The notes under the pieces: generated by a model
Database searches by the model: none
What the model saw: only the letters and a program-made list of their open reading frames with translations
What the model was told of the DNA's origin: nothing
Translations under genes and position numbers: made by a program
In this document: positions 4,709-38,127 of the stretch, piece by piece
Layout of the letters: every line of letters begins with the position of its first letter
Numbering within the stretch: the first letter of the stretch is position 1
DNA from: Mycobacteriales bacterium
GTDB lineage: Bacteria; Actinomycetota; Actinomycetes; Mycobacteriales; SCTD01
Length of the DNA stretch: 38,127 nucleotides
Reading direction: 5' to 3'
Assembly (NCBI GenBank): GCA_046593875.1
Contig: JBKJQQ010000004.1
Coordinates: 1-38,127 of the forward strand

Positions 4709-4743
4709 GCCCACGTCCTCGTCTCGACCCGATCCATCCGTAT

Positions 4744-4767
4744 GCCTGACTGACCGGTCAGTCAGGC
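4744..4767. promoter_or_regulatory. 24-bp perfect palindrome; candidate TetR operator
   Basis: GCCTGACTGACCGGTCAGTCAGGC is its own reverse complement. It lies 36 bp upstream of the TetR start codon, at the head of the five-gene operon on the minus strand. Confidence 0.6.
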
Positions 4768-5311
4768 TACAACGGCAGGCACCGAACGTCCACCCACTGC
4801 CGTTCTCCTCGGTGGGAGAGGCGGGTTGCGGATGACGGCGCTCCTGTTTTTTCGCTCCCGCGCAGTAGGACGAGCACCCGCAGCGGCGTAGGACGTCCGC
4901 CAGGCCCACCGGCCGGGTGGGACTTCTTGGCTGGCTTCCTCCAGGCCGTCAGAACAGCCCAGGCGCCGGTGGCGCGCAGCGTCATCGTGACGACCGGCAT
5001 TGTTAGCCCGGTGGCCCGCTGCCGGCCTGATAGTCGACGCGTTGAACATCAGGGACCAGTCCCGCCGAGGGCGACGACCGAGCCGCTCCCGGCCACTCAG
5101 GCCGGGACAAGCGGGTGCGGTGCCTTCTGCAACTGATCATGAGATAGATACAACTGACTCGTGATCCTGGGCCACTCCGATCTACGCTTCGTACAGATCT
5201 TCAGCGCTGCTCGCACCCGCCCCGGTGCGCCGGGGACGACCGGCCGGCGGCTGCTGGCCCCGCCTGTGGTCGGCGAGGACAGTCTTTTGCCCCTACAACG
5301 AGGTGGCAGAC

Positions 5312-6233
5312 ATGACTGGGCAGACTGATGACGCGCTGATGCTGATGGAGCGGGCCGTGGCTTCACGCGATCCGCTGGAACTTGCTCTGGCAGGGTTCCT
5401 GTCGGCCTACAAGGGCCGGACGTTCGACAAGCAACGCCGAGTCATCAAGCACTACGTAGACTGGTGCCTGCAGAACGACCTGCCGCCGCTGCAGGCGAAG
5501 CGCCCGCACATCGAGCTGTTCGTCCGCCGGGGCGAGACCCAGCCGTGGTCGGAGTCCTACATCTGCCAGCACTTCATCGGCGTCCAGTCCTTCTACAAGA
5601 CCTGCGTGCGCGACGACTTGCTGCTTCGAAACCCCTGCCGAGTTCGTGGCCGCGCCTCCCGTCAACGAGGAAGGTCAGCAGCGGACGTTCCTCTCGCCGC
5701 TGGAGTTCGCCGCCTTCCTAGATGCATCACGCAAGGCCGGACCGGTCGAGCATGCCGCCGCCGCGCTGATGGGCCTGTCCGGCCTTCGGGTCGCCGAGAT
5801 GTGCAGCCTGCGGGTCGAGTCACTGAGCCAGGACGGCGGCTACGACAGCCTCACGATCATCGGCAAGGGCGGCAAGCCCGCCGACATCCCGCTCCCGGTG
5901 CCGGTCATGCGCGCCGTCCACGTCGTCGTAGAGGGCCGCACGAGTGGGCCCCTGTTGCGCAACCGAGCCCGGGAACGCGCTGACCACTCTGGACGCCCGG
6001 CGCATGGTGAACCGCATCGCAAACACGGCCGGGTGCAGGCACATCACTCCGCATGGCCTGCGCCGCACCTCCTGCACCGCCGGGCTGGTCAGCGGCGTCC
6101 CGATGCGCGACATGCAGATCGCGTGCGGCACGCCGACCCCCGCACCACCGGCTTGTACGACATGGCCAAGAACAACAAGGACCGGCACGCCAGCCACCGC
6201 GTCGCGTCGTTCCTCGCCGGCATGACCGGGTAA
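5312..6233 (+). pseudogene. Tyrosine recombinase / phage-type integrase, disrupted by at least 3 frameshifts
   Basis: The N-terminal SAM-like domain is in frame 2 (MTGQTDD...LLLRNP). The catalytic domain continues in frame 0 (AEFVAAPPVNEEGQQRTFLSPLEF...GLSGLRVAEMCSLRV...). It then runs in frame 1 (GNALTTLDARRMVNRIANTAG.RHITPHGLRRT...MQIACG) and returns to frame 0 (HADPRTTGLYDMAKNN...). Shifts are near 5636, about 5970 and about 6128. R, HxxR, H and Y catalytic residues are all recognisable. Confidence 0.8.
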
Positions 6234-6354
6234 GCACTTCGGCTGGCGGGTGGCATCAGCGGCGTAGAGCCGGCGTTCGGTCCGACATAGAAGACGATGA
6301 CGTTGTGGTGGGCGCCTACCGGCGGGCTCGCTGCGATCGTGACGCTCAGGGTCG

Positions 6355-7020
6355 TCAGACCGTACGTGCGGTGGGGAGTGCGGCTGCGGCCCATTCCGGG
6401 AAGCCGTCGACCAGCCGTAGGGCACTTCGTCCAGCGGCCGATAGCCGGCGTACCGCGTCGTCGGCGTAGATGCAGTACGGCCCGCGACAGTAGGCAACCA
6501 CGACTAAATCCGCCGGCAGGTCCCGCAGCCACGGCTCAAGCTCGCCGGGTGGCACGTTGACGGCGCTCGGGATGTGTCCGGCTTCGTACTCAGCCGGCGG
6601 CCGCACGTCCAGCACGACGACGTCCCCCGCCCGGAGGCGGACGGCCAGTTCGTCGCGTCCGATGGTCGCCAGTTGCGTCCGGTCGCCGAGGTAGGCATCG
6701 GCAAGCTCGTCGAGCTGCGCTACGTGCTCGGCCGCGACGTCCCGCATCGCCCGCCACAGCGCGCCGACCTGCTCGCTGGCCAGCGAGTAGAACACCCGGG
6801 TGCCGTCCCGGCGGGTGCGGACCAGCCCGGCGCGCAGCAGCTGCTGCAGGTGCTGAGAGGTGTTTGCGACGCTCTGGTCGATCTGCCCGGCCAGGTCCTC
6901 GACTCGGCGCTCGCCCTGGGCGAGCACGTCCACGATCTCGGCACGCCGGCCGTTGCCGAGCGCCTTGGCGACGGACGCGAGCCCCTCGTACAGCGCATCC
7001 TTGGCGTGACGATCTCCCAC
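6355..7020 (-). CDS. ArsR/SmtB-family transcriptional regulator fused to a C-terminal rhodanese domain
   Basis: wHTH: VEDLAGQIDQSVANTSQHLQQLLRAGLVRTRRDGTRVFYSL. Rhodanese: VVVLDVRPPAEYEAGHIPSAVNVP...VVAYCRGPYC. GTG start with a GAGGAGG SD. Confidence 0.85.
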   Translation of the reverse strand: MGDRHAKDALYEGLASVAKALGNGRRAEIVDVLAQGERRVEDLAGQIDQSVANTSQHLQQLLRAGLVRTRRDGTRVFYSLASEQVGALWRAMRDVAAEHVAQLDELADAYLGDRTQLATIGRDELAVRLRAGDVVVLDVRPPAEYEAGHIPSAVNVPPGELEPWLRDLPADLVVVAYCRGPYCIYADDAVRRLSAAGRSALRLVDGFPEWAAAALPTARTV

Positions 7021-7030
7021 CCTTACCTCC

Positions 7031-7087
7031 TCAAGCGATCGTTTGACAATACACCTGACCGCTGGCAGTCTTCAAGTACTTACTTGA
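7031..7087. promoter_or_regulatory. Divergent control region with two related TCAAG...CTTGA-type palindromes (candidate ArsR-rhodanese operators)
   Basis: TCAAGCGATCGTTTGA at 7031-7046 has 14 of 16 positions symmetric. TCAAGTACTTACTTGA at 7072-7087 is 7-2-7 symmetric. TTGACA lies at 7043-7048. The region is flanked on each side by a GAGGAGG SD. Confidence 0.45.
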
Positions 7088-7105
7088 TGAGGAGGCGTGG
7101 CGGTG

Positions 7106-8452
7106 ATGGAGACGATTCCCGTGGTCGACGACGGCCTGGGCAACACGACCTGGTTGGTCGATCTGGGCGAGGGACGGGCGCTGGCGGTCGATGCCTCGCG
7201 TGACCTGCGTGCTGTGCAGCAGACGGTGCAGGCGCGGGGGCTCGAGATGGCCTTCGCGGCCGACACGCATCTGCATGCCGACTTCGTCACTGGGGCGGTC
7301 GACCTGGCGCGGTCCGGGGCGACGCTGCTCGCCTCGGCGGCTGGCGGTCGCGAGTACCCGCACACCGGCCTGCACGATGGTGACGAGATCGACCTGGGTG
7401 GCCTGACGCTGCGGGCGCTGGCCACCCCGGGTCACACCGACGAGCACCTGTCGTTCCTGTTACTGGACGGCACCCGTCCGCTCGGGGTGTTCACGGGCGG
7501 GTCGCTCATCGTCGGCGCCGCAGCGCGCACCGATCTGGTGAGTCCGGAGCGGACCGAGGAGCTGACGCGGGCGCAGTGGCGCTCGCTGCAGCGGCTGGTC
7601 ACGCTGCCCGACGACGTGCAGGTGTGGCCGACGCACGGCGCCGGCTCATTCTGCTCGGCGCCTCCCGGGGCGGAACGCAGCAGCACCATCGGGCGGGAGA
7701 AGGCGAGCAACGCGCTGCTGCGCGCCGGCAGCGAGAACGCCTTCGTCGCTGCGCTGCTGGGCGGACTCGGGTCCTACCCCGCCTACTTCCGCCGCCTGGG
7801 CGAGGTCAACCGGCGCGGCCCTGTCCCGGTGGACCGCGCCCCGACGCTGAGCGCGCAGACACCGCAGCAGGTCTCCGCCGCAGCCGATAGCGGCGCGCTC
7901 GTCATCGACGTCCGGCCAGTGACCGCGTTCGCCGCAGGACACATCGCCGCCGCCGTCTCCATCCCGTTGCGGCCGGTGTTCGCCACCTGGCTCGGCTGGA
8001 CCACCGGGCTCGAGACGCCGCTGGTGTTCGTCCGCGACGCCGGCCAGGACCCTGACGAGATCGTCTGGCAGGCGCGCAAGATCGGATACGAGAACCTCGT
8101 CGGCGAGCTCGACGGCGGAATGGCCGCCTGGTCGGCGGCAGGACTGCCGGTGCGGACCACCACTGTGCTCGGCGCCGACGAGCTGGACGGTCGAGCGATC
8201 GTCGACGTGCGCCAGCGCAGCGAGTTCGCCACCGGACACGTGCCCGAGGCCGCCAACGTCGAGCTCGGCGCGCTGGCCGAGGGCGCACCCGCTGACGTCG
8301 GAGCGGGCGTGGCCGTCATGTGCGGGCACGGGGAGCGGGCGATGACCGCCGTGAGCCTGCTCGAACGCGCCGGCCACGACGACGTCGCCGTGGTCGTCGC
8401 CGGGCCCGACGACTGGGCGCAGGCAACCGGCCGCGCCGTGGCCCAGTCGTGA
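7106..8452 (+). CDS. MBL-fold metallohydrolase fused to two rhodanese domains (persulfide dioxygenase-sulfurtransferase type)
   Basis: MBL motifs THLHADF (HxHxD) and TPGHTDEH. First rhodanese has no Cys in its loop (VFVRDAGQD). Second has the catalytic loop CGHGERA. ATG 7106 is preferred over the track start 7097 because the GAGGAGG SD ends at 7095. Confidence 0.8.
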   Translation: METIPVVDDGLGNTTWLVDLGEGRALAVDASRDLRAVQQTVQARGLEMAFAADTHLHADFVTGAVDLARSGATLLASAAGGREYPHTGLHDGDEIDLGGLTLRALATPGHTDEHLSFLLLDGTRPLGVFTGGSLIVGAAARTDLVSPERTEELTRAQWRSLQRLVTLPDDVQVWPTHGAGSFCSAPPGAERSSTIGREKASNALLRAGSENAFVAALLGGLGSYPAYFRRLGEVNRRGPVPVDRAPTLSAQTPQQVSAAADSGALVIDVRPVTAFAAGHIAAAVSIPLRPVFATWLGWTTGLETPLVFVRDAGQDPDEIVWQARKIGYENLVGELDGGMAAWSAAGLPVRTTTVLGADELDGRAIVDVRQRSEFATGHVPEAANVELGALAEGAPADVGAGVAVMCGHGERAMTAVSLLERAGHDDVAVVVAGPDDWAQATGRAVAQS

Positions 8453-9747
8453 GCGCCTCGCCACGCGGCGCGACCGTGAACACCGCGCCGATCCGGCTGG
8501 GACTGCGGGCGAACGCCGCGCAGTTCACCTTGCTCGTCGCGGTCAACGCCCTGGTCGGCGGGATGCTCGGCCAGGAGCGCACCGTCCTGCCGCTGCTGGC
8601 CGAGCAGGAGTTCGGGCTGACCGGCTTTACCGTCGCGACCACGTTCATCGTCGCGTTCGGCCTGACCAAGGCAGTCACCAACTTCGCTGCCGGCGCGCTG
8701 TCCGACCGCTACGGCCGCAAGCCGGTCCTGGTCGCCGGTTGGCTCGTCGGCCTCCCCGTGCCGCTGCTGCTCATATTCGCACCCAGCTGGGGCTGGGTGG
8801 TCTTCGCCAACGTGCTGCTCGGCGTCAACCAAGGCCTGACCTGGTCCACCACGGTCATCATGAAGATCGACCTGGTCGGACCGGCGCGCCGCGGCCTGGC
8901 GATGGGCCTCAACGAGGCCGCCGGCTACCTCGCCGTCGGCGCCACCGCGCTGGCCACCGGCTACATCGCCGCCCAGCACGGCCTGCGGCCGGCCCCGTTC
9001 TTCCTCGGCCTGGCGTTCGTCGCCCTCGGCCTCGGACTGTCGGCCACGGTCGTGCAGGAAACTCGCGACTACGCCCGGCTCGAGGCCGCTACGCATGCGC
9101 CCGTTGCGCGTACTGACGGGCGGGCGCACCAGCCCGAGGACCTGAGCACTCGGCAGGTCTTCCGACGAACCACCTTCAGCGAGCCGGCGCTGTCCTCGGT
9201 TAGCCAGGCCGGACTGGTCAACAACCTCAACGACGGGCTGGCCTGGGGGTTGTTCCCGCTGCTGTTCGCCTCCGCCGGCCTGTCCGTCGCACGAATCGGT
9301 GTGTTGGCTGCGCTCTACCCAGCCGTGTGGGGCCTGGGTCAGCTGGTCACCGGCGCCGCCTCCGACCGACTCGGCCGCAAGAACCTCATTGTCGCCGGCA
9401 TGCTGCTGCAGGCCGCCGCCCTCGCGCTCGTCGCCGCTGTCGACAGCTTCGCGCTCTGGGCCGTCGCCGCCGTCACGCTCGGCGTCGGCACCGCGCTGGT
9501 CTACCCCACCCTGCTGGCCGCGATAGGCGACGTCGCCCACCCGGCCTGGCGGGCCCGGTCCATCGGCGTCTACCGGCTCTGGCGCGACGCCGGCTTCGCC
9601 GTCGGCGCGCTGCTCGGCGGCATCATCGCCGATTTCTACGGCCTGCGCACGGCAGTCGCCGTCGTCGCCGCCATCACAGCCGCCTCCGGACTGCTCGTCG
9701 CCATCCGGATGTACGAAACGCACCAACCCGTCCCGAACAACACCTAG
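8449..9747 (+). CDS. MFS transporter
   Basis: Twelve-TM-like hydrophobic pattern. MFS loop motif GALSDRYGRKPVL, repeated as GAASDRLGRKNLI in the second half. GTG start overlaps the upstream stop (GTGA at 8449-8452). The earlier part of the track ORF is R-rich shadow. Confidence 0.8.
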   Translation: MSASPRGATVNTAPIRLGLRANAAQFTLLVAVNALVGGMLGQERTVLPLLAEQEFGLTGFTVATTFIVAFGLTKAVTNFAAGALSDRYGRKPVLVAGWLVGLPVPLLLIFAPSWGWVVFANVLLGVNQGLTWSTTVIMKIDLVGPARRGLAMGLNEAAGYLAVGATALATGYIAAQHGLRPAPFFLGLAFVALGLGLSATVVQETRDYARLEAATHAPVARTDGRAHQPEDLSTRQVFRRTTFSEPALSSVSQAGLVNNLNDGLAWGLFPLLFASAGLSVARIGVLAALYPAVWGLGQLVTGAASDRLGRKNLIVAGMLLQAAALALVAAVDSFALWAVAAVTLGVGTALVYPTLLAAIGDVAHPAWRARSIGVYRLWRDAGFAVGALLGGIIADFYGLRTAVAVVAAITAASGLLVAIRMYETHQPVPNNT

Positions 9748-11379: not shown

Positions 11380-12327
11380 CTACCGCGCCTGGCTGCTGGT
11401 GTAGCTCTGGCGGGCCTGCTCGAACTGGACCTCGGTGTGCCGGGCCAGCCCCAGAGCGCTGGCCGCGGTCAGGATCGTGAGGCCCACGACGGCCGCGCGC
11501 AGCGCCAGGTGCCGTCGTGGGGCAGGCGCGAGCAGGGCCCGCACCCGGTCACCTGCGCTACCGCGGACCGCTCCGAGGACGACGGACTGCAGCGGCCCCG
11601 CCGCGAAGTCGGGTGCAGGCGCGCTGGCAAGGCTGGCGCGCGCCAGAGCCTGCGCCGCGGTGCGACGGCTCCCGACCTGCCGGGCGGCGTCTTCGTCGGC
11701 CCAGCGCTCGACCGCAGCGACGACGGCCGTGGTCAGCGGACCGAGCAGGGGGTTCGCCGCGACGGCGAGCTCAGTGAGCTGGACGTAGAGATGGTGCCGG
11801 TGTCGCAGATGGGAGTGCTCGTGGGCGAGCAGGACACGCTGCTCGGCAGGGGGCAGGGCCGCGAGCATCGCCGTGGACACGACGATGCGCCCGCGCCAGC
11901 CGGGCAGGGTGAAGGCGTCGGGGCGCTCGTCGTCCACGATGATCAGACCGGCGTCCCCCGGGCCCAAGGCGCGGCACGTGAGCTGCGAGGCAGTGAGGTC
12001 GCGCCCCGCGGCGACCAGGCGCAGTACCGCAGCACCCAGGAGGACAGCCACGACAGCAGCGACGGGCCAGCCGACGACGGGGGGCAGCGGCACGGTGCTG
12101 TGCACCTGCTCGGCCGACCACTGGCCTCGGGCCGCCAGGACCGGCAGCTGCGCCAGCGCGTCGAAGGCCAGGACCGCCAGGACGAACCCGCAGCTGACCG
12201 CCGTGACCAGGCCGGCACCGGTCAGCAGCCGTGCGGTCGCCCGCGGCGGCAGCCGCGAGCCCAGCCGGCACGCGGTCCCGCGGAGCAGCAGGGCGGCGAT
12301 CAGCGGGACAGCAGCCAGCGGGTCCAT
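11380..12327 (-). CDS. M56-family (BlaR1/MecR1-like) membrane metalloprotease sensor
   Basis: Zinc motif HEHSHLRHRHH (HExxH) after N-terminal TM segments. The start lies 1 nt after the stop of the BlaI-family gene. Confidence 0.8.
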   Translation of the reverse strand: MDPLAAVPLIAALLLRGTACRLGSRLPPRATARLLTGAGLVTAVSCGFVLAVLAFDALAQLPVLAARGQWSAEQVHSTVPLPPVVGWPVAAVVAVLLGAAVLRLVAAGRDLTASQLTCRALGPGDAGLIIVDDERPDAFTLPGWRGRIVVSTAMLAALPPAEQRVLLAHEHSHLRHRHHLYVQLTELAVAANPLLGPLTTAVVAAVERWADEDAARQVGSRRTAAQALARASLASAPAPDFAAGPLQSVVLGAVRGSAGDRVRALLAPAPRRHLALRAAVVGLTILTAASALGLARHTEVQFEQARQSYTSSQAR

Positions 12328-12328
12328 C

Positions 12329-12727
12329 TCAGTCGACGGGCTGACCGGCGGGACCCGGCTCGGTCGGGCGCAGGAGGTCAGCGAGCAGCTGCTCGTCCCC
12401 GGGTCCGAGGTCGGCGACGAAGTGCGCCAGCGCGGAGGCCCGGTCCGGACCGGCCGCCAGCAGCTGGCTCATCCGCCGGCCGGTGAGGGCCGCGGCGACG
12501 TCCTTCTCGGCGGTGACCAGGCTGTAGGCGTAGGACCGGCCGGCCGACTCCCGGCGCAGCGCGCCCTTCCCGACGAGCCGGCTCAGCGTGGTCATGACCG
12601 TGGTGTAGGCCAGGCCGTCGCCGAGCTCGGCCTGCGTCTGTCCCGGCGTCAGCGGGCGGCCGGCAGCGGCCAGGACAGCGAGCACCCGGCGCTCCAGCTC
12701 CCCCCGGCCCCGACGCGGTGCCCCCAT
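12329..12727 (-). CDS. blaI: BlaI/MecI/CopY-family transcriptional repressor
   Basis: About 130-aa winged-helix protein: GELERRVLAVLAAAGRPLTPGQTQAELGDGLAYTTVMTTLSRLVGKGALRR. Paired with the M56 sensor immediately downstream. Confidence 0.8.
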   Translation of the reverse strand: MGAPRRGRGELERRVLAVLAAAGRPLTPGQTQAELGDGLAYTTVMTTLSRLVGKGALRRESAGRSYAYSLVTAEKDVAAALTGRRMSQLLAAGPDRASALAHFVADLGPGDEQLLADLLRPTEPGPAGQPVD

Positions 12728-29893: not shown

Positions 29894-31162
29894 ATGAGCC
29901 GCTGGCACCTGCGCGACCTGACCGACCGCGATCTGGAGAGCGCCGTCGCGTTGGACGCCCTGTCCAGCACCGTCGCTCAGCCCGCGCTGTTCCCCCTTGC
30001 CGACGTCGTCGCGAGCCTGGTGGCGGGACAGCCCGCGGTCGCGGCGGAGGTGGGCGGGCAGATGGTGGGTGTCGCTGTCGGCCGGCTCGACCGTGAGCGG
30101 GGCTGGATCCTGCGGATGACCCTTCACCCGCAGTGGCGGGGCCGCGGGCTCGGAAGTGAGCTGCTCGCCCACCTGGAGCACCGACTGGTCGCCGCAGGTG
30201 CCCGCAGGTTGACGTGCGTTCTGCCGCGCGGCGAGACGGGCAGCGAGGCGCTGCTGAACTCCGGCTTCGCCGCGAGGGACGACGTGACGTGGTTCGACAA
30301 GCTCGAGCAGGTGCGGACCGAGGATGTCGAGGCGGCAGCTGCGCTGGGGGGTGTCATCCCGCCGTCGAACCTCTGGGCCAAGGTCGAGGGGATGACGCAG
30401 GAGAAGGCAGTCATCGACCGTCGTGTGGTGCTTCCGCTCGCGCACCGCGGCCTGGCCGAGGAGCACGGGGTGCGTGAGCCCCGCGCCGTGATGCTCTTCG
30501 GCCCGCCAGGCACGGGAAAGACGACCTTCGCTCGCGCGATCGCCAGCCGCTTGAGCTGGCCGTTCGTGGAGCTCTTCCCCTCGCGCCTGGCGGGTGCGAG
30601 CGGCGGCCTGGCCAGCGGGCTGTCCGACGCCTTCTCCACCCTTGCCCGGATGGAGCACGTGCTGGTGTTCATCGACGAGGTAGAGGAGATCGCCGCCGAC
30701 CGCGCCACCACGGGCGCGGACATCGGGGTCGTCAACGAGCTCCTGAAGGCCATCGTGGCCTTCCGTGAACGTCCTGACCGGCTGCTCGTCTGCGCCACGA
30801 ACAGCATCCGCAGCCTGGATGCGGCCTTCCTGCGGCACGGGCGCTTCGACTACGTGCTCCCGATCGGCCCGCCCGATGCCGACGCCCGGGGCGCGCTCTG
30901 GCGTCGCGCCGCCGAGGACACCGGAGCCGACCTCGACCTGGACCGTCTCGCGGCCGCGAGCGAGGGACTGACGCCGGCCGACATCGGCCACGCCAGCCAG
31001 CAGGTCGCCGCTCGCTCCTTCGAGTCCACGCTGTCCAGCGGCCGACGGCAGCCGACCACGACGGAGGACTTCCTGGACGCCATCGCCGCCACGCGCCCCA
31101 CCCTCACCGCAGAGGACGTCGAGCGCTTCCGGGACGACGTGGTCCGCTACGAGCGATCGTGA
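29894..31162 (+). CDS. GNAT N-acetyltransferase fused to a classical AAA+ ATPase
   Basis: GNAT acetyl-CoA motif LHPQWRGRGLGSELL. AAA+ Walker A GPPGTGKTT. Walker B VFIDEVEE. Sensor-1 region CATNS. Arg-finger region LRHGRFDYVLPIGPPD. Confidence 0.8.
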   Translation: MSRWHLRDLTDRDLESAVALDALSSTVAQPALFPLADVVASLVAGQPAVAAEVGGQMVGVAVGRLDRERGWILRMTLHPQWRGRGLGSELLAHLEHRLVAAGARRLTCVLPRGETGSEALLNSGFAARDDVTWFDKLEQVRTEDVEAAAALGGVIPPSNLWAKVEGMTQEKAVIDRRVVLPLAHRGLAEEHGVREPRAVMLFGPPGTGKTTFARAIASRLSWPFVELFPSRLAGASGGLASGLSDAFSTLARMEHVLVFIDEVEEIAADRATTGADIGVVNELLKAIVAFRERPDRLLVCATNSIRSLDAAFLRHGRFDYVLPIGPPDADARGALWRRAAEDTGADLDLDRLAAASEGLTPADIGHASQQVAARSFESTLSSGRRQPTTTEDFLDAIAATRPTLTAEDVERFRDDVVRYERS

Positions 31163-31184: not shown

Positions 31185-31793
31185 TCAGACCGGGACGGCG
31201 CTCCCGCGCACCACCGGGCGCACGAAGGGGACCGGCACGGGCAGCACATCCCGGCGCAGGTCGCGGACGTCGAAGCCCGCCGCGAGCAGCAGGTCCGACG
31301 TGGGGCGGACGAGGGAGCAGCCACCGCCGATGCGGGACCAGGCGGGTGCGACGACTCCTTGAGCCCTGCGCAGGAGGCTCCCGTGGTCGGCGGCGACGTG
31401 CTCGATCAGGTGCAGCCTGCCGCCCGGTCGCAGGACGCGGCGCACCTCCTCGAGCGCTCGATCGAGTCTGCGCACCGAGCAAAGCACGAGGGTGCTGACG
31501 ACCGCGTCGACACTGGCGTCGGCCAGGGGCAGGCGCGAGGCGGAGCCGGCCAGCACCAGCAGCCGCGGGTCGTGGGACGCGCGAGTGGCGAGCAGGCCGC
31601 GCATCCTCGGATCCGGTTCCAAGAGCAGTAGCCGCTGCACTTCCGGGCCGTAGGCGGACAGATTCGCGCCGGTCCCCGCGCCGATCTCCAGCACGACTCC
31701 GGAGACGTCCTGCAGCAGCTCTCGGCGCCACGTGTGCAGAGCGCGCCGCTCGGCGCCGGCGAGGGCCCGGTCGTAGAGCCGGGCGCTCAGCAC
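31185..31793 (-). CDS. Class I SAM-dependent methyltransferase (paralog-like of 1771..2412)
   Basis: VLEIGAGTGANL and LRPGGRLHLIEHV. Same layout as the gene at 1771..2412, including the GGC..L.R block. GTG start. Confidence 0.8.
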   Translation of the reverse strand: MLSARLYDRALAGAERRALHTWRRELLQDVSGVVLEIGAGTGANLSAYGPEVQRLLLLEPDPRMRGLLATRASHDPRLLVLAGSASRLPLADASVDAVVSTLVLCSVRRLDRALEEVRRVLRPGGRLHLIEHVAADHGSLLRRAQGVVAPAWSRIGGGCSLVRPTSDLLLAAGFDVRDLRRDVLPVPVPFVRPVVRGSAVPV

Positions 31794-31977
31794 ACGAAGC
31801 AGGTCAGGCTCGTCCAGACAGCGAAGACGCCGCTACCGGCCAGGCCCAGCAGCGGTCGCACCGGCAGCGTCGCGGCTGCTTGTCCTGCCGCGGGCTCTGC
31901 CACGGCCTCTGCTCCTGCTGCCAGGGCCCGAGAGGGGTGGTTCGACGTCTCGACGGCGTCGAGGTCCACGCAGACCG

Positions 31978-33327
31978 TCACGGGGCGGTGATCGTGAAAC
32001 CGGCCTTCTCGGCGTTGTCGTAGTCGTCGTCGATGTGCACGACCGGGTGCTCCGCCCGGTCGAGCAGGCTCGCAGCGATGCTGGCCCGGAAGCCGCTGGC
32101 GCAGTGCACCCACACCTTGTCCGACGGCACCTCGGCCAGCCGGTCCTGCAGCTCGCTGAGCGGGATGTGCACCGAGCCCTCGATGAAGCCGTGCGCGCGC
32201 TCGTCGTCGCGGCGCACGTCCAGGACGACCGCGCCCGGCTCCGCGGCGACCTGCTGGAAGTCGGCGACGGAGTAAGAGCGCATGTCGATGCCGTCGGCGA
32301 GTGAGTCCAGCTCGCCCGTCGCGGCGCCGGCCGGTCGCTCGATCCCGATGCGCACCAGCTGCCGCTGCGCGTCCGCGATCTGCTCGGGGCTCTCGCCGAT
32401 CAGCGTGACCGGCTCCCCCCACGGGACGATCCAGCCGACGTAGGTCGAGAACTGGGTCCCCATCGCCACCGACACCGTGCCGGCGAGGTGCCGGCCTGCG
32501 TACGTCGAACGGTCCCGGAGGTCGACGACCCACTCGCCGGCCCGGATCCGCGCGGCGAGCTCGGTCGGGTCGACGGGGGTGGCCGGTGACAGGTCCGGGG
32601 CGTCCGGCCCCTCGGCGTTGCGCGGTCCCATGTAGGCGTAGTAGGTGGGGTAGCCGGTCAGGCCGGCGACGAGCCGGTCGACGAACGCCTGCTCGTCGTC
32701 CTCGAGCAGCGCGTCGTTGCGGCTCTTCTCGGTCCCGATGGTGCTGTCGCTGCCGCCGCTGGCCCCACCGGAGGAGCAGAAGCTGCCGAAGCCGTGGGTC
32801 GGGTACACCGGCGTCTCGTCCGGGAGCAGGTCGGCCAGCCGGCGGGCGGAGCGCCACTGCTTGCGGGTGAGCTCGTCGGTACGGTCCGTGCCGAGCAGGT
32901 CGGTGCGCCCGACGCTTCCGTACAGCAGCGAACCGCCGGTGAACACGGCGGCCGGACCCTCACCGTCACTGATGACGTAGGACACGTGGGTGTCGGTGTG
33001 TCCGGGGGTCTCGAGGACCCGGACGGTCATGGTGCCGGCCGACAGGTCGTCACCGTCGTGCACGGCGCACCGCTCGAAGGACACCTCGTCGCGACCGGCC
33101 ACCACGTAGGTCGCACCGGTCTTGCGGGCCAGCGCCAGGCCACCGGTGACGTAGTCGTTGTGCAGGTGGGTCTCGACCACCAGCGTCGCGGTCACCCCCA
33201 GCTCGCCCAGCAGGCTCTCCACGCGATCGAGATCGCGCTGTGGGTCGACGACGACAGCGCACGTCCCGTCACTGACGACGTAGCTCCGGTCGCCCAGGTC
33301 CGGTGTCTCGATCACGTCGACGCGCAT
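31978..33327 (-). CDS. MBL-fold metallohydrolase fused to two rhodanese domains (paralog of 7106..8452)
   Basis: THLHNDY (HxHxD) and TPGHTDTH. First rhodanese loop lacks Cys (LIGESPEQ). Second has VHCASGFRAS. ATG 33327 has a GGAGG SD. Collinear similarity to 7106..8452 is visible by eye. Confidence 0.8.
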   Translation of the reverse strand: MRVDVIETPDLGDRSYVVSDGTCAVVVDPQRDLDRVESLLGELGVTATLVVETHLHNDYVTGGLALARKTGATYVVAGRDEVSFERCAVHDGDDLSAGTMTVRVLETPGHTDTHVSYVISDGEGPAAVFTGGSLLYGSVGRTDLLGTDRTDELTRKQWRSARRLADLLPDETPVYPTHGFGSFCSSGGASGGSDSTIGTEKSRNDALLEDDEQAFVDRLVAGLTGYPTYYAYMGPRNAEGPDAPDLSPATPVDPTELAARIRAGEWVVDLRDRSTYAGRHLAGTVSVAMGTQFSTYVGWIVPWGEPVTLIGESPEQIADAQRQLVRIGIERPAGAATGELDSLADGIDMRSYSVADFQQVAAEPGAVVLDVRRDDERAHGFIEGSVHIPLSELQDRLAEVPSDKVWVHCASGFRASIAASLLDRAEHPVVHIDDDYDNAEKAGFTITAP

Positions 33328-33451
33328 GCTGCCTCCAGGTGAAGTGTCGTTGCTCCTTGTCCGTACATTAGTGTCGGGAGCCTCCTCCCGCAAGGCCCCC
33401 GGGCAGGGCTGCTGCCCGCCGACGACGAAAGGCAGCGTGAGAACGTCCGAC

Positions 33452-35239
33452 ATGCCCAGCACCTCCGGTCGGCCGCGCAGCGCCCCCGCCGGTGGTCGCG
33501 GGCGGCAGGTCCTTCTGACGGTCGTCCCAGCCTCCAGGTGGCTGCTGTCGTACCGCCGCGAGTTCCTGCGCCGCGACATCCCGGCAGGCCTTACCGTCGC
33601 GGTGCTGCTGATCCCCCAGTCGATGGCCTACGCCGCCCTGGCAGGGATGCCGCCCGAGGCGGGCCTCTACTCGGCGATCGTGTCTCTGCTGGTCTACGCC
33701 GCGCTCGGGAGCAGCAGCTTCATCTCCGTAGGACCGGTCGCGATCGACTCGCTCCTGGTCGCCGCGGCAGTCGGACCCCTCGCGCAGGGCGACACGACGC
33801 TGTACGTCGCCGCGGCCGGGGTGCTCGCCGTGATGACCGGGCTGATCCAGCTGGCTCTCGGGACGTTACGGCTCGGCGCCCTCGTCAACTTCCTCTCCGT
33901 GCCCGTCATCAGCGGCTTCACCTCGGCCGCGGCCATCACGATCGGCGCCAGCCAGGTCAAGGACCTGCTCGGTCTCGACGTGCCCAAGGGGCAGGGCAGC
34001 AGCTTCCTCGACACGCTCCGGGCGACGCTCGCTGCAGCGGACACCGTGCACGCGCTCACTGCGCTGATCGCCGGCATCACCCTCGTGACGCTGGTCGCTG
34101 CGCGGCGCCTCGTCCCCCGGGTGCCTGCCGCGCTCGTCGTCGTGGCGCTCTCGACGGCCGCCGTAGCCCTGCTGCGCCTGGACGCTGACGGCGTCACGAT
34201 CCTGGGCGAGGTACCTGCGGGCCTCCCGCGGCTCGTCGTCCCGAGCCTCGACGTCGACCTCGCCCGGCAGCTGCTGCCCGCCGCGTTGACCATTGCCGTG
34301 ATCTCGTACATGGAGAGCATCAGCACGGCCAAGGCCTTCGCCACCCGCACGCGCACGCGGGTGCAGCCCAACCAGGAGCTGCTGGCCGTCGGGGCAGCCA
34401 ACCTCGCCGCCGGGTTGTTCCGGGGCTTCTCCGTCGCCGGCGGGTTCTCCCGGGGCGCCGTCAACTTCCGCGCGGGCGCCAAGACGCAGCTGTCCGGCGT
34501 CACCGCAGCAGCCGTCCTGCTCGTGGCGGTCGCCTTCCTCACGCCGCTGTTCTTCTACCTGCCCAAAGCCGTCCTGGCCGCCGTGATCGTCGTCGCGGTC
34601 GCCTCCCTCGTCGACGTCCGCGGGGCCCGACGGATCCTGCGCGTGCAGCGGGCCGACGGGATCGGCCTGCTGGTGACCTTCTTCGCCACGCTCCTCGTCG
34701 GCGTCGCGCAAGGTCTGGCCGTGGGGGTGGCCGCCAGCCTGCTCGTCTTCATCGCCCGCACCGCTCGCCCGCACGTCGTCGAGGTGGGGCGCGTCAAGGG
34801 GACAGCGCGCTACCGCAACGTGGAGCGCTGGGCCACCCGCACCGACGACCGCGTCGCCATCCTGCGCATGGACGGCCCGCTGTACTTCGCCAACGCCCGC
34901 TTCTTCGAGCAGCGGGCGCAGGCGCTGGTCGGCGACCGGCCCCTCGTCGAGCACCTGGTCGTCGTGGCGAGCGGGATCGGCGACATCGACGCGAGCGGTA
35001 CGGAGCTGCTCATCGAGCTGGACGACGAGCTGAAGGACGGCGGGGTGCAGCTGCACCTGGTCACCGTTCGCGGCCCCGTGCGGGACACCCTGGCCAACAC
35101 CGACCTGTGGGAGGCGATGCTGACCTCCGGACGCATCCACACCACCATCGAGGCAGCGGTGCGCGCCATCGCTGGACCGAACGGGTCCCCGCTGCTCAAG
35201 CCCGACGACGAGGTCTCCTCGCCTGCGGACCTGGTCTGA
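33452..35239 (+). CDS. SulP-family anion transporter with a C-terminal STAS domain
   Basis: SulP N-terminal signature GLTVAVLLIPQSMAYAALAGMPPEAGLYSA. Multiple TMs. STAS-like C-terminus (VAILRMDGPLYFANARFF...IDASGTELLIELDDELKDGGVQLHLV). Confidence 0.85.
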   Translation: MPSTSGRPRSAPAGGRGRQVLLTVVPASRWLLSYRREFLRRDIPAGLTVAVLLIPQSMAYAALAGMPPEAGLYSAIVSLLVYAALGSSSFISVGPVAIDSLLVAAAVGPLAQGDTTLYVAAAGVLAVMTGLIQLALGTLRLGALVNFLSVPVISGFTSAAAITIGASQVKDLLGLDVPKGQGSSFLDTLRATLAAADTVHALTALIAGITLVTLVAARRLVPRVPAALVVVALSTAAVALLRLDADGVTILGEVPAGLPRLVVPSLDVDLARQLLPAALTIAVISYMESISTAKAFATRTRTRVQPNQELLAVGAANLAAGLFRGFSVAGGFSRGAVNFRAGAKTQLSGVTAAAVLLVAVAFLTPLFFYLPKAVLAAVIVVAVASLVDVRGARRILRVQRADGIGLLVTFFATLLVGVAQGLAVGVAASLLVFIARTARPHVVEVGRVKGTARYRNVERWATRTDDRVAILRMDGPLYFANARFFEQRAQALVGDRPLVEHLVVVASGIGDIDASGTELLIELDDELKDGGVQLHLVTVRGPVRDTLANTDLWEAMLTSGRIHTTIEAAVRAIAGPNGSPLLKPDDEVSSPADLV

Positions 35240-35291
35240 CAGCAGCCCTGTCGTCCATCGCCGAACCCACCCGCGTAGAGCAGGAGCAGCC

Positions 35292-35780
35292 TTGACCCCA
35301 CCCCCAGGTCCCGGCGCCGCGCCGCCCCCCCGTCCCCCGTTGCGAGACGGCGAGTGCGCCCGGCGGCTCGGCCGACAGCCGACGGAGAGCATCGAGGGCG
35401 GGTTCGCCGTGGTGCTCAACTGCATCGACGGGCGAGCCCAGCAACCCCTTCTGGACTGGGTGCGCTCCCAGTACGACGTCGACTACGCAGACGTCGTCAC
35501 CGAGCCCGGGATCGACGCCCTGCTCGCGGCAGCACCACCGACCGCGCGAGATGCCGTGCTGGACAAGGTGTGCGTGTCCCGACTGGCGCACCTGTCGTGC
35601 TACCTCGTGGTCGCCGGTCATCACGACTGCGCCGCCAACCCGGTGCCCCGCCCCGTGCACGAGGAGCAGATCCGCGTCGCCGTGGCTTGGCTGCGCACCG
35701 CCCTGCCCCGCTTCGAGGTCGCCGGGGTGTACCTGGACGAGACGTGGTCGGCCTGCCCCGTCGCCGACGGCACGGGTTGA
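35292..35780 (+). CDS. Small beta-carbonic-anhydrase-like protein (putative Zn site CxDxR...HxxC)
   Basis: The TTG start is preceded by an AGGAG SD 5 nt upstream. NCIDGR and VVAGHHDCAAN align conceptually with the beta-CA CxDxR and GHxxC zinc-ligand motifs. High GC3. The protein is much shorter than canonical beta-CAs. Confidence 0.5.
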   Translation: MTPPPGPGAAPPPRPPLRDGECARRLGRQPTESIEGGFAVVLNCIDGRAQQPLLDWVRSQYDVDYADVVTEPGIDALLAAAPPTARDAVLDKVCVSRLAHLSCYLVVAGHHDCAANPVPRPVHEEQIRVAVAWLRTALPRFEVAGVYLDETWSACPVADGTG

Positions 35781-35796
35781 GGGGAACCTGCGCGCC

Positions 35797-37011
35797 GTGC
35801 TGACCCCGGTCCCCGTGTGGCACGACGTCGTCCAGTCGCTGGTCCGGCCGCTGCCCGCCCGGCACGTGGCGCTCGCCGACGCAGAGGGTTGCCTGCTCGA
35901 GAGCGCCGTGTCCGCGCTGCACCCGTTGCCGCCGTTCGACGCCTCGGCGATGGACGGCTACGCGGTCCGGGCCGGCGACGTCCGGGGGGCCGGGCCGGCG
36001 CATCCGGTACGGCTGCGCGTCATCGCCTCCGCTCCCGCCGGCCACCCCGTCGGGGCGGTCGTCGGTGCCGGAGAGGCTGTCCGGATCCTGACCGGAGGGC
36101 AGCTGCCCCGCGGTGCCGATTCCGTCGTGGCCGTGGAGTCCACCGACGGCGGGCGGCAGGTGGTGGCCGTCCGCGAGGCCGTCGGGCCCGGCCGGCACGT
36201 CCGTCGGGCCGGCGAGGACCTGGCTCAGGGTGCTCACGTCCTCCTGCCGGGACGGGTCGTCGGCCCGGGACAGGTCGCCGCGGCCGCTGCGGCCGGGCAC
36301 GCCACCCTGCAGGTGGTGCCGCGACCACGGGTGGTGGTCGTGTCGACTGGCGACGAGCTCGTCGCACCCGGCGACCCGCTGGCGCCAGGCCAGCTGCCGG
36401 ACAGCAACGCCGCCGGGCTGGCCGCGGCGGTCCGTCTCGCGGGTGGCCGAGCCACCGTCCTGCGATGCGGGGACGACCCGCGGCTGCTCCGCCGGTTGCT
36501 GGCTCAGGCAGCAACGACCGCAGACCTCGTGCTCACCAGCGGAGGCATCAGCGCCGGTGAGGAGAACGACGTCGTCAAGGCCGCGCTGACAGGCGGTCCG
36601 GTGCGGTTCGTGAACGTCGCCATGCAGCCGGGCTCGCCCCAGGCGGCGGGCACCGTCGACGGAGTTCCCTTCGTCGGGTTGCCCGGCAACCCGGTCTCAG
36701 CGTTCGTGTCCTTCACCGTCTTCGTCCGCCCCCTGCTGCGATGCTTGCGCGGATTGGGCCCGGAGCCGGCGGCAGGCCCGGTCGAGCTGACGGCTCCTGT
36801 CGACCCCCATCCGGTGAAGACGCGCTACGTCGGCGCCAGGTGGGTCGCCGATGGCGGCCGCTCCAAGGCGGCGCCGCACCCGCGCCAAGGCAGCCACCTG
36901 ATGACGCTGCTCGCCGACGCGGACCTGCTGCTCGAGCTCGCACCCGGGGCGCAGCCGCACGCAGCGGGCTCCCTCGTCCCCGCTCGCCGCCTCGATGGCG
37001 ACACGAGCTAG
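35797..37011 (+). CDS. moeA: Molybdopterin molybdenumtransferase
   Basis: PPFDASAMDGYAV, VLTSGGISAGEENDVV and GLPGNPVSAFV are hallmark MoeA blocks. The GTG 35797 start lies within track ORF 35551..37011. Confidence 0.85.
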   Translation: MLTPVPVWHDVVQSLVRPLPARHVALADAEGCLLESAVSALHPLPPFDASAMDGYAVRAGDVRGAGPAHPVRLRVIASAPAGHPVGAVVGAGEAVRILTGGQLPRGADSVVAVESTDGGRQVVAVREAVGPGRHVRRAGEDLAQGAHVLLPGRVVGPGQVAAAAAAGHATLQVVPRPRVVVVSTGDELVAPGDPLAPGQLPDSNAAGLAAAVRLAGGRATVLRCGDDPRLLRRLLAQAATTADLVLTSGGISAGEENDVVKAALTGGPVRFVNVAMQPGSPQAAGTVDGVPFVGLPGNPVSAFVSFTVFVRPLLRCLRGLGPEPAAGPVELTAPVDPHPVKTRYVGARWVADGGRSKAAPHPRQGSHLMTLLADADLLLELAPGAQPHAAGSLVPARRLDGDTS

Positions 37012-37092
37012 AAAAGTCCGGACAACCCTTGCGGAACCCCGGCGTCACCGCCTAGCGTCCGGCCGAGGCTGTCGCCGCTCGAAGGGAATCGG

Positions 37093-38127
37093 ATGCACCC
37101 CGTGGAACAGCAGGAACGCCCGGTCCGCTGGCTCAAGGTCCTCGACCAGACCAAGTGCATCGGCTGCCACGCCTGCACGACGGCCTGCAAGAGCGAGAAC
37201 GAGGTGCCTGTCGGCGTGACCCGGACCTACGTCAAGTCCGTCGACGTCGGGGTGTTCCCGCAGGTCCGCCGAGCCTTCCAGGTGACCCGCTGCAACCAGT
37301 GCACCGACGCACCCTGCGTCACCGCGTGCCCGACGCAGGCGATGTACAAGCGACCCGACGGGATCGTCGACTTCGACAAGGACATCTGCATCGGCTGCAA
37401 GGCGTGCATGGCCGCCTGCCCGTACGACGCGATCTTCATCAACCCCGAGGACCACTCCGCGGAGAAGTGCAACCTGTGCGCGCACCGCATCGACGTCGGC
37501 CTCGAGCCGGCCTGCGTCACGGTGTGCCCGACCGAGGCCATCCTGGTCGGCGACCTGAACGACCCCACGTCGAAGGTGGCAAAAGCCGTCCAGCGGCAGC
37601 CGGCCCTGGTGCGGCGCCCGGAGAAGGAGACCGGCCCGGGCGTGTTCTACCTGGGCGCGCACCAAGCCACGCTCGACCCGCTGGGCGCCACCCGCCCGGA
37701 CGGCGGCCTCTACGCCTGGGCCACCCAGGGTCAGCCAGGCCCGCAGCTGGTGCCCTCCGGGCACCCGGACCGAGCCCGCTCGTCGGCAGCGGCGCTGCTG
37801 TCCTACGACATCCCGCACTTCGCCCCGTGGGGGTGGCGGGTCAGCCTCTACACCTGGACCAAGAGCATCGCGGCCGGCGCCTTCCTGGTCGCGGTCGTGA
37901 TGGCGCTGGTCGGTCTGCTGGACTTCGGCGACGACACCGTCCGCTTCGCCGCGCCGCTGCTTGCGCTCGCCTTCCTCGGCGTCACCGGCGTGCTGCTCAT
38001 CTGGGACCTCAAGCACCCGACGCGCTTCTACCTGATCTTCACCCGGCACCACTGGAAGAGCTGGCTGGTCCGCGGGTCCTTCATCATCGGGGCCTACGGC
38101 GCCCTGGTCGTGGCCTACCTCGGTGCC
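37093..38127 (+). CDS. Four-cluster 4Fe-4S ferredoxin-type subunit fused to an NrfD/PsrC-like membrane domain (partial; continues past the window)
   Basis: Not in the ORF track because it has no stop in the window. ATG 37093 has a GAAGGGA SD. The frame stays open for 345 codons to the window edge. Cys clusters: CIGCHACTTAC, CNQCTDAPCVTACP, CIGCKACMAACP, CNLCAHRIDVGLEPACVTVCP. Hydrophobic helices follow (WRVSLYTWTKSIAAGAFLVAVVMALVGLL...). The 335-aa minus-strand ORF at 37045..38052 is its shadow. Confidence 0.8.
   Translation, partial: MHPVEQQERPVRWLKVLDQTKCIGCHACTTACKSENEVPVGVTRTYVKSVDVGVFPQVRRAFQVTRCNQCTDAPCVTACPTQAMYKRPDGIVDFDKDICIGCKACMAACPYDAIFINPEDHSAEKCNLCAHRIDVGLEPACVTVCPTEAILVGDLNDPTSKVAKAVQRQPALVRRPEKETGPGVFYLGAHQATLDPLGATRPDGGLYAWATQGQPGPQLVPSGHPDRARSSAAALLSYDIPHFAPWGWRVSLYTWTKSIAAGAFLVAVVMALVGLLDFGDDTVRFAAPLLALAFLGVTGVLLIWDLKHPTRFYLIFTRHHWKSWLVRGSFIIGAYGALVVAYLGA

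Follow-up and report, generated by a model that had tools for sequence, protein, structure and literature searches.

A 38,127-nucleotide (nt) stretch of DNA from a Mycobacteriales bacterium (contig JBKJQQ010000004.1, positions 1 to 38,127, G+C content approximately 72%; hereafter the window) ends inside an operon that would encode a three-module complex iron-sulfur molybdoenzyme. Its catalytic subunit of approximately 978 amino acids (aa), with a Cys-ligated molybdenum-bis(pyranopterin guanine dinucleotide) (Mo-bisPGD) site, would bind, at the cytoplasmic face of the membrane, to a four-cluster ferredoxin that is fused to an NrfD/PsrC-type quinone anchor. We propose, from its anatomy and gene context, that the complex acts as a sulfite:menaquinone oxidoreductase of the SoeABC kind, its B and C subunits being fused, and that it carries sulfite on to sulfate, and we give this reading a probability of roughly 0.55. 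The part of the window that concerns us contains the following features.

31978 to 33324, minus strand: CstB-like protein with one metallo-β-lactamase (MBL) and two rhodanese domains (Pfam Lactamase_B and Rhodanese)
33325 to 33451, intergenic: divergent region between the CstB-like and SulP genes, with blocks conserved in related loci L089, L090, and L095
33452 to 35239, plus strand: SulP-STAS transporter of the SulP/SLC26 family (Pfam Sulfate_transp, E 1.8e-106, and STAS)
35292 to 35780, plus strand: minimal β-carbonic anhydrase (CA)-like protein of 162 aa (Pfam Pro_CA_2, PF20393)
35797 to 37011, plus strand: MoeA-family paralogue with a GTG start (Pfam MoeA_N, MoCF_biosynth, and MoeA_C)
37012 to 37092, plus strand: conserved leader of the next gene, by homology with related locus L085
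37093 to 38127, plus strand: N-terminal 345 codons of an iron-sulfur (Fe-S)/NrfD fusion (Pfam Fer4_11 and NrfD), with the frame open at the window end

Open reading frame (ORF) listing, translation, and Pfam searches placed all five genes where a preliminary description of the window had read them, with the same identities and with gaps of 52, 16, and 81 nt; an alternative start for SulP is possible at a GTG at 33437. The view past the window end comes from colinear relatives at approximately 90% nucleotide identity and not from the window's own contig. Two such relatives (L171 and L172), reached through homologues of the CA-like protein, are colinear with window positions 31780 to 38122. The gene order in L171 is a GNAT-AAA gene, a CstB-like gene on the minus strand, SulP, Pro_CA_2, MoeA, Fe-S/NrfD, and the start of the next gene. 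L172 reaches farther, with a 978-aa MopB protein (Molybdop_Fe4S4, Molybdopterin, and Molydop_binding domains) encoded 10 nt past the fusion gene, followed by a NarJ-family chaperone (307 aa) and an Mrp/NBP35 ATPase (368 aa) and, farther on and on the opposite strand, by a GntR regulator and a second SulP. In a metagenome contig (L089), the genes run in the same order and the MopB gene begins in the same way. When the Fe-S/NrfD fragment was used as the query of a genome scan, 80 loci were obtained (L001 to L080, 69 to 87% identity), and ORF clustering placed a MopB gene of approximately 980 aa directly after the fusion gene in 73 of 74 loci. The catalytic subunit that the preliminary description had expected just past the window was thus present in L172, L171, L089, and nearly every genome locus. 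A NarJ-like gene was found in 59 to 61 of the 80 loci and an Mrp/NBP35 gene in 17. Two candidates were rejected: a gene of approximately 400 aa after the chaperone had been read as MoeA and was identified by BLAST as Mrp/NBP35, and an antisense ORF cluster of approximately 290 aa over the chaperone gene was, by its composition, probably an ORF-calling artifact, with tblastn finding the NarJ-like gene there.

The fusion protein, cut by the window end in our copy, has a full length of approximately 511 aa (511 aa in L171), and one full-length relative (P0122) is 94% identical. No signal peptide was found on its Fe-S domain, which begins at residue 1 and carries four Cys groups (CIGCHACTTAC, CNQCTDAPCVTAC, CIGCKACMAAC, and CNLC...CVTVC). 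The Fe-S part was closest in the PDB to PsrB (2vpw_B, E 1.8e-47) and also matched ArrB, whereas the membrane domain, with eight helices in an AlphaFold2 (AF2) model, was nearest to ActC and PsrC (2vpw_C, TMt 0.74). The AF2 model of the full fusion was confident for the membrane domain and poor for the cofactor-dependent Fe-S domain (pLDDT below 50). Top NCBIfam matches included TtrB and NrfC, with a score for the TtrB equivalog of 177.8 versus a cutoff of 416. Since Fe-S and NrfD domains occur in a single protein of approximately 510 to 520 aa in 74 of the 80 related loci, and in at least 7994 clusters at 90% identity, the fusion is not an artifact. By its domains and motifs, the protein is predicted to be a four-cluster PsrB/NrfC-type ferredoxin joined to an eight-helix NrfD/PsrC-type quinone-binding anchor. 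One European Nucleotide Archive contig (48.7 kb) encodes a predicted protein of 1479 aa (P0037) with Fer4, NrfD, and three MopB domains. This protein may be a genuine B-C-A triple fusion or may result from read-through or faulty gene calling.

The solved structures nearest to the catalytic subunit were ArrA (top) and PsrA (E 1.1e-32), and its molybdenum ligand would be Cys, as the motif HTNVCSAAGR aligned with Cys173 of PsrA and the corresponding Cys of ArrA. Its top NCBIfam match was PhsA, at 194.3 versus a cutoff of 694, and TtrA scored 117.8 versus 1750. The twin-arginine translocation (TAT) signal that the preliminary description had anticipated was absent: none of the 73 catalytic subunits checked, that of L172 included, had a TAT-like N terminus. 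Ahead of the CxxCxxxC motif these proteins share a hydrophilic tail of approximately 70 residues (…ERARRVSAARKDVEARGETFYQG…). Because there is no TAT signal and no Fe-S signal peptide, and because the loop between transmembrane helices 2 and 3 (TM2-TM3) of the fusion is rich in Arg and Lys, with loop charges that obey the positive-inside rule, we infer that the redox chain and the active site are cytoplasmic. Within the tail, the L172 subunit (positions 5480 to 5700) and all 73 orthologues in L001 to L080 keep an Arg-Arg pair (ERARRVSAARKDVEARGE...) that is not a TAT motif. The N-terminal tail of NarG similarly holds a vestigial Arg-Arg that does not serve for export, and by analogy the pair here may be a vestigial signal bound by the NarJ-like chaperone.

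The product of the divergent gene has an MBL domain, a degenerate rhodanese domain, and then a catalytic rhodanese domain. It aligned over its full length with PDB 3tp9 (E 2e-59), and its residues 22 to 437 aligned with residues 49 to 462 of Staphylococcus aureus 3r2u (E 3.5e-49), which we take to be CstB. In this alignment, HLHND stood opposite HIHAD of 3r2u at the HxHxD metal motif, and VHCASGFRAS stood opposite VHCQSGIRSS around the Cys of the C-terminal rhodanese. The protein fell under the cutoffs of both the Blh and the GloB equivalogs of NCBIfam, and its architecture and motifs mark it as a probable CstB-like persulfide dioxygenase-sulfurtransferase. Alignment with L089, L090, and L095 revealed a conserved block (TTGTCCGTACATTAGTG) in the divergent region at about 33357 to 33373. 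A CstB-like relative stood no more than 10 kb from the Fe-S/NrfD gene in 31 of the 80 loci, and in 27 of the 54 loci that were at least 15 kb long (hereafter long loci), in which neighbor counts were taken. A rough estimate of the chance expectation for such proximity is approximately 1%, taking a gene of one to three copies in a genome of 5 to 6 Mb, and the linkage between the CstB-like gene and the complex is far above it.

Another sulfur locus lies at 3108 to 9747 of the window. It contains genes for a two-domain rhodanese (3108 to 4037, minus strand), a TetR regulator (4037 to 4909, minus strand), and an ArsR-type helix-turn-helix domain fused to a rhodanese domain (6355 to 7020, minus strand). 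The last of these is divergent from a second CstB-like paralogue (7097 to 8452, plus strand) that is 38% identical to the 31978 to 33324 product and is followed by a major facilitator superfamily (MFS) transporter gene ending at 9747. The same ArsR/MBL/MFS trio occurs on pRHL3 of Rhodococcus jostii RHA1, and we regard the ArsR-rhodanese protein as a possible sensor of persulfide that could serve both sulfur loci of the window. Between the TetR and ArsR-rhodanese genes, a 195-aa ORF (5646 to 6233) gave a weak and partial Phage_integrase match (E 1.2e-5, under the cutoff) and could be what is left of a mobile element beside this sulfur locus.

Hosts of the 80 loci belong to Actinomycetota, Acidobacteriota, Gemmatimonadota, and Dormibacterota, with one contig binned as Burkholderiales. 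The family was also found on a megaplasmid of Thermomicrobium roseum (60% identity), on pRHL3 of RHA1 (57%), on haloarchaeal replicons (approximately 50%), and on a Myxococcota contig (46%). Related loci span at least seven phyla. The search with the catalytic subunit gave at least 8000 clusters under the E-value limit; among the top 120 clusters listed for each subunit search, identities were 73 to 95% and all names were generic. The host taxa (Actinomycetota, Acidobacteriota, Gemmatimonadota, Chloroflexota, and haloarchaea) are largely aerobes.

A sulfur-handling gene of some kind was present in 29 of the 54 long loci. In addition to the CstB-like genes, we counted CsoR-family (12 loci), sulfide:quinone oxidoreductase (SQR)-like (8), DsrE-like (8), ClC (7), ArsR (6), TusA (5), and TauE (4) genes. 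More distant members lie in similar surroundings. The pRHL3 row reads thioredoxin, MBL, ArsR, two DUF202 genes, MBL, DsrE, TusA, Fe-S/NrfD, MopB, and Mrp; a CsoR-family regulator stands directly upstream of the complex in T. roseum; and the Myxococcota locus, with a MopB 46% identical, consists of a sigma-54 activator, an MBL-rhodanese gene, two YeeE-like genes, Fe-S/NrfD, and MopB. In L085, whose fusion is 94% identical, two LbpA genes, DsrE, Rieske, and Mrp genes precede the orthologous SulP and the complex. The same set in L174 runs into a Fer4+CCG protein, EtfAB, and a radical-SAM protein, with SulP and a CA-like gene at the end of the cluster. These sHdr-like sets occupy positions 1 to 8000 of L085 and 10500 to 20471 of L174, and their Fer4+CCG proteins are 750 to 839 aa. 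Type II sHdr clusters, which occur mainly in Chloroflexota, Actinobacteriota, and Bacillota, have the make-up seen in L085 and L174 (PMC11094781). Three conserved ORFs upstream in L085 (326, 318, and 238 aa) had no Pfam match. Taken together, the complex is accompanied again and again, in different phyla, by CstB-like, SQR, TusA, DsrE, and sHdr-type genes and by regulators of the persulfide type, which bears out the link to inorganic sulfur that the preliminary description had drawn.

Other genes were also seen near members of the family. A LysR-family regulator stands beside the Fe-S/NrfD-MopB operon in 38 of the 80 loci and is the commonest neighbor after the chaperone. The window encodes a GNAT acetyltransferase fused to an AAA+ ATPase at 29894 to 31162, and an orthologue stays near the molybdoenzyme locus despite rearrangements, being upstream in L171, downstream in L085 (73% identity), and also present in L035 (50% identity). 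A supplement to a T. roseum transcriptome study lists a "4Fe-4S" gene (trd_A0629) as up 1.56-fold in stationary phase; no link between this locus tag and the fusion gene was found. A sister group with 33 to 38% identity has separate genes for the three subunits, likewise ordered B-C-A, and is represented by L082 (Azoarcus sp. KH32C pAZKH), L086 (a Sulfurovum mangrovi plasmid), and L169. In the Azoarcus and Sulfurovum loci these are followed by a TorD-like chaperone, small hypothetical genes, and a 4Fe-4S protein of approximately 370 aa, none of which was seen in L169, and the Azoarcus locus adjoins a sigma-54 two-component system and a PhnD/SsuA-type binding protein.

The SulP protein scored above the cutoff of NCBIfam TIGR00815 (448.6 versus 380.45) and under those of the BicA (161 versus 880) and DauA (221.6 versus 614) equivalogs. 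Its orthologue in L085 is 80% identical and directly abuts the Fe-S/NrfD gene. We propose that SulP is the oxyanion carrier of the pathway in the window lineage, exporting sulfate, sulfite, or thiosulfate. The CA-like protein matched PF20393 with an E value of 1.4e-35 (122.7 bits versus a gathering cutoff of 30), and the residues of its CxDxR and HxxC motifs (C44, D46, R48, H110, and C113) are invariant or nearly so among homologues. Its AF2 model had a pLDDT of 90.1, and the top 19 Foldseek matches in the PDB were all β-CAs, the best of them (1g5c) with an E value of 2.3e-5 and a TM score of only about 0.5; no PDB relative was found at the sequence level. The model thus indicates a β-CA fold of the Pro_CA_2 branch, and the protein is possibly a partner of SulP for bicarbonate exchange. 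The product of 35797 to 37011 has all three MoeA Pfam domains and fell under three equivalog cutoffs (MoeA_actino, 366 versus 560; Glp, 351 versus 475; PRK10680, 279 versus 440). These scores suggest a divergent MoeA paralogue, and it looks like a dedicated cofactor-insertion factor.

L171 and L172 retain the full gene order, as do at least nine metagenome contigs, among which the identity of the CA-like protein falls to approximately 57 to 60%. L173 lacks MoeA but keeps SulP, the CA-like gene, and the complex. MoeA was seen at this position only in close relatives (L088 to L096, L171, and L172) and beside the complex in only 4 of the 80 genome loci. When the window was compared with L085 by blastn, positions 33551 to 35211 (SulP) and 37013 to 38126 (leader and fusion) were homologous, and 35212 to 37012 (the CA-like gene and MoeA together with the 3' end of SulP) corresponded to merely 30 bp, so that the CA-like and MoeA genes are a lineage-specific insertion or deletion of approximately 1.8 kb. 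Among Pro_CA_2 relatives at approximately 40% identity (metagenome loci L097 to L167), a desaturase-like membrane protein gene adjoins in 17 loci and a gene for a multi-pass membrane protein of approximately 730 aa in 16. The Pro_CA_2 family in general is tied neither to SulP nor to sulfur genes.

No sigma-70-like promoter or intrinsic terminator was found in 31700 to 38127, the spaces between the genes of the run yielded no inverted repeat, and there was no Rfam match, the Moco riboswitch included. A pair of 13-nt inverted repeats lies at 31841 to 31887, past the 3' end of the CstB-like gene. The 81-nt leader has a homologue in L085, namely the 84 nt that separate SulP from the Fe-S/NrfD gene, and its predicted fold was not unusually stable (z = -0.84). 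Judged by its spacing, the run is plausibly cotranscribed.

The pathway that we propose would begin with sulfide or persulfide stress, from which low-molecular-weight or carrier-bound persulfides would arise. These would be oxidized in the cytoplasm to sulfite or thiosulfate by the CstB-like dioxygenase-rhodanese, whose part may be played in relatives by the type II sHdr-like system. The molybdoenzyme would then oxidize sulfite to sulfate, with two electrons passing through the Fe-S chain to menaquinone, in reaction and orientation as in SoeABC. SulP-STAS would export the oxyanion and may exchange it for bicarbonate, whose interconversion with CO2 would fall to the β-CA-like protein. Maturation of the enzyme would depend on the NarJ-like chaperone and the Mrp/NBP35 ATPase and, in the window lineage, on the dedicated MoeA paralogue. 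We infer the substrate (sulfite), the oxidative direction, the type of quinone, and the roles of SulP and the CA-like protein; the choice of a sulfite:menaquinone oxidoreductase was made because persulfide dioxygenase (PDO)- and sHdr-type systems make cytoplasmic sulfite and because the hosts are mostly aerobes.

Several observations weigh against this pathway. The end product of CstB is thiosulfate and not free sulfite. The best NCBIfam match of the catalytic subunit, though far under its cutoff, is PhsA, and the names given to family members by JGI and NCBI are generic only, not SoeA. The order BC fusion, A, NarJ-like, and often Mrp/NBP35 differs from soeA-soeB-soeC. TusA and DsrE genes stand directly upstream in RHA1, where the substrate could be carrier bound. 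Beside the complex, the CA-like gene was found in none and SulP in 4 of the 80 loci, and SulP/Pro_CA_2 pairs occur without any molybdoenzyme in unrelated contexts (L133, L137, and L156). The absence of terminators is, in a high-GC genome, weak evidence of cotranscription.

The last of these points bear on the most credible alternative, itself rather unlikely, which holds that the run consists of juxtaposed modules: SulP and the CA-like protein would be a bicarbonate/anion module, MoeA would serve cofactor synthesis at large, and a functional tie would exist between the Fe-S/NrfD-MopB genes and the CstB-like gene alone. The 1.8-kb indel relative to L085, the low counts of CA-like and SulP genes beside the complex, the unrelated pairs just mentioned, the 40%-identity Pro_CA_2 relatives beside desaturase-like and other genes, and the familiarity of SulP-CA fusions and pairs as a theme all fit this view. 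It is opposed by the orthologous SulP that precedes the Fe-S/NrfD gene in L085, L171, L172, L173, and L089, by the SulP and CA-like genes that close an sHdr-type cluster in L174, by distant SulP genes that adjoin PDO genes in L065, L070, and L080, by ClC (8 loci) and TauE (4 loci), anion carriers that stand in the position of SulP in other loci, and by the gaps of just 52 and 16 nt. The single integrated pathway of the preliminary description stands in part. The fusion-MopB pair (73 of 74 loci), the CstB-like gene (half of the long loci), and the recurrence of sulfur genes around the complex uphold it, whereas the indel of the CA-like and MoeA genes indicates that the run is not one ancient unit, and neither the CA-like gene nor SulP is generally conserved beside the complex.

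It is unlikely that the complex oxidizes another cytoplasmic sulfur substrate, either thiosulfate made by CstB or sulfane sulfur delivered by TusA/DsrE, as an alternative to sHdr, rDsr, and PDO. CstB-type enzymes yield thiosulfate, PhsA is the top family score, DsrE and TusA of RHA1 lie immediately upstream with the same orientation, L063, L065, and L080 have a DsrE-like gene after the chaperone, and YeeE-like transporter genes are present in the Myxococcota locus. A precedent may be the Thioalkalivibrio "Soe-like cluster 2," whose substrate is not known (PMC6620896). Set against this are the scarcity of carrier genes nearby (TusA or DsrE in only 5 to 9 of the 80 loci) and the co-occurring PDO and sHdr-like systems, which already make sulfite and leave it as the unprocessed intermediate. 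Moreover, we know of no Mo-bisPGD enzyme that acts on protein persulfides. Quite unlikely, in our view, is the more specific form in which the complex is a new catalytic type, an O2-independent, quinone-reducing cytoplasmic enzyme that oxidizes thiosulfate or TusA/DsrE-bound sulfane sulfur, with SulP and the mini-CA as a sulfate:bicarbonate exchanger. If the thiosulfate or carrier-sulfur reading were true, the complex would be a third cytoplasmic system for sulfane-sulfur oxidation beside rDsr and sHdr, and among the most widespread sulfur-oxidizing enzymes of aerobic soil bacteria and haloarchaea.

The preliminary description had likened the Fe-S/membrane unit to polysulfide, thiosulfate, and tetrathionate reductases, and a quinol-dependent enzyme of this kind (Psr, Phs, or Ttr) would agree with PsrABC and ArrAB as the closest solved relatives, with PhsA, TtrB, and NrfC as the top NCBIfam matches, and with the name "tetrathionate reductase subunit B precursor" that one submitter gave to a member (P0226). 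We consider it very unlikely: no TAT signal was found on any of the 73 catalytic subunits, the Fe-S domain has no signal peptide, the PhsA, TtrA, and TtrB equivalog scores are all far under their cutoffs, and the hosts are mostly aerobes whose neighboring genes encode oxygen-dependent dioxygenases and SQR. The complex is predicted to face the cytoplasm instead. That its substrate is not a sulfur compound at all, being arsenite, arsenate, selenate, or another oxyanion, is scarcely credible, since ArrA as the top solved homologue of the catalytic subunit, the ArsR-family regulators nearby in RHA1 and in the first sulfur locus of the window, and the proposal of a Thioalkalivibrio Soe-like enzyme as an arsenite oxidase (PMC6620896) are outweighed by ArsR-family genes fused to or beside rhodanese/MBL genes in the BigR/SqrR pattern, by the absence of ars genes among the loci read, and by recurrent neighbors that are sulfur specific (CstB-like, SQR, TusA, DsrE, and LbpA).

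Elsewhere in the window, a Peptidase_M48/M56 (BlaR1-like) membrane protease is encoded at 11380 to 12327 (minus strand), preceded by a 133-aa ORF at 12329 to 12727 (minus strand). The pair looks like the BlaI/BlaR type, the protease being the member that was scanned.

Detoxification of sulfide by SQR and persulfide dioxygenase is widespread in aerobic heterotrophic bacteria. To our knowledge, the removal of sulfite in Actinomycetota, Acidobacteriota, Gemmatimonadota, Chloroflexota, and haloarchaea has rarely been accounted for, and surveys of sulfite oxidation target SorAB, SUOX, SoeABC, or Apr/Sat. If the complex is the missing sulfite:quinone step, sulfide detoxification in soil bacteria would be tied to respiratory energy gain, metagenome-based inventories of sulfur-cycle genes would change, and a natural single-chain B-C fusion would be at hand for the study of cytoplasm-turned NrfD-type anchors. 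The complex is of interest because it is abundant and because cultured carriers (R. jostii RHA1 with pRHL3, Mycolicibacterium chlorophenolicum, Gordonia, Microlunatus, Leekyejoonella, and T. roseum) make the proposal directly testable.

Full-text literature searches turned up no publication that describes the fused complex or this order of genes, in agreement with the preliminary description, which had not recognized the order as a described operon. Parts of it do resemble known systems. M. tuberculosis Rv3273 is presumably an example of a SulP fused to or paired with a β-CA, and Felce and Saier are said to have treated such fusions and pairs as a known theme in 2004. As in those systems, SulP-STAS is followed here within 52 nt by a protein of predicted β-CA fold with zinc ligands, and the SulP/CA pair recurs in unrelated genomes. 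It differs in that the CA is a minimal Pro_CA_2 protein (core of approximately 125 aa) and not a classical Pro_CA, and in that the pair is, in the window lineage, embedded in sulfur-oxidation clusters. The cst operon of S. aureus (CstR, TauE, CstA, CstB, and SQR) and the PDO operons of the BigR/SqrR/FisR type likewise have a CstB-like MBL-rhodanese-rhodanese enzyme, an adjoining anion exporter, and regulators of the kinds seen beside relatives of the complex (CsoR, ArsR, and sigma-54). Those operons end at thiosulfate or sulfite, which is exported, whereas here a quinone-linked molybdoenzyme is added and the carrier varies among SulP, ClC, and TauE.

The complex itself shares with NarGHJI a Mo-bisPGD enzyme predicted to face the cytoplasm and a NarJ-family chaperone, and differs from it in having a heme-free NrfD anchor and a Cys ligand where Nar has a diheme cytochrome b anchor and an Asp ligand. 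Among solved structures, PsrABC of Thermus thermophilus (PDB 2vpw to 2vpz) ranks first, alone or jointly, as a homologue of each of the three modules, and it also has a Cys ligand to molybdenum. However, Psr, Phs, and Ttr are TAT-exported, periplasm-facing reductases with separate B and C subunits, in contrast to the fused, TAT-less complex with its low PhsA, TtrA, and TtrB scores. In published descriptions, SoeABC is cytoplasm facing, TAT-less, and NrfD anchored (PMC8076601; PMC6620896). No SoeA model or SoeA-named protein was among the NCBIfam matches, PDB matches, or named cluster representatives, and a tblastn search of a plasmid collection for SoeA returned only family members, the unfused B-C-A relatives (Azoarcus and Sulfurovum), and partial N-terminal matches. 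By anatomy and those descriptions, the complex resembles SoeABC of Allochromatium vinosum and Aquifex aeolicus in its Mo-bisPGD subunit with an N-terminal Fe-S Cys motif, in its four-cluster ferredoxin and heme-free NrfD anchor, and in its lack of a TAT signal and probable cytoplasmic catalytic side, and each is assigned a place after systems that form sulfite in the cytoplasm. In the present complex, a single polypeptide comprises B and C, and the hosts (Actinomycetota, Acidobacteriota, Gemmatimonadota, Chloroflexota, Myxococcota, and haloarchaea) are not classical sulfur oxidizers. What is new is a B-C-fused, chaperone-assisted complex iron-sulfur molybdoenzyme, predicted to face the cytoplasm, that is tied to persulfide oxidation.

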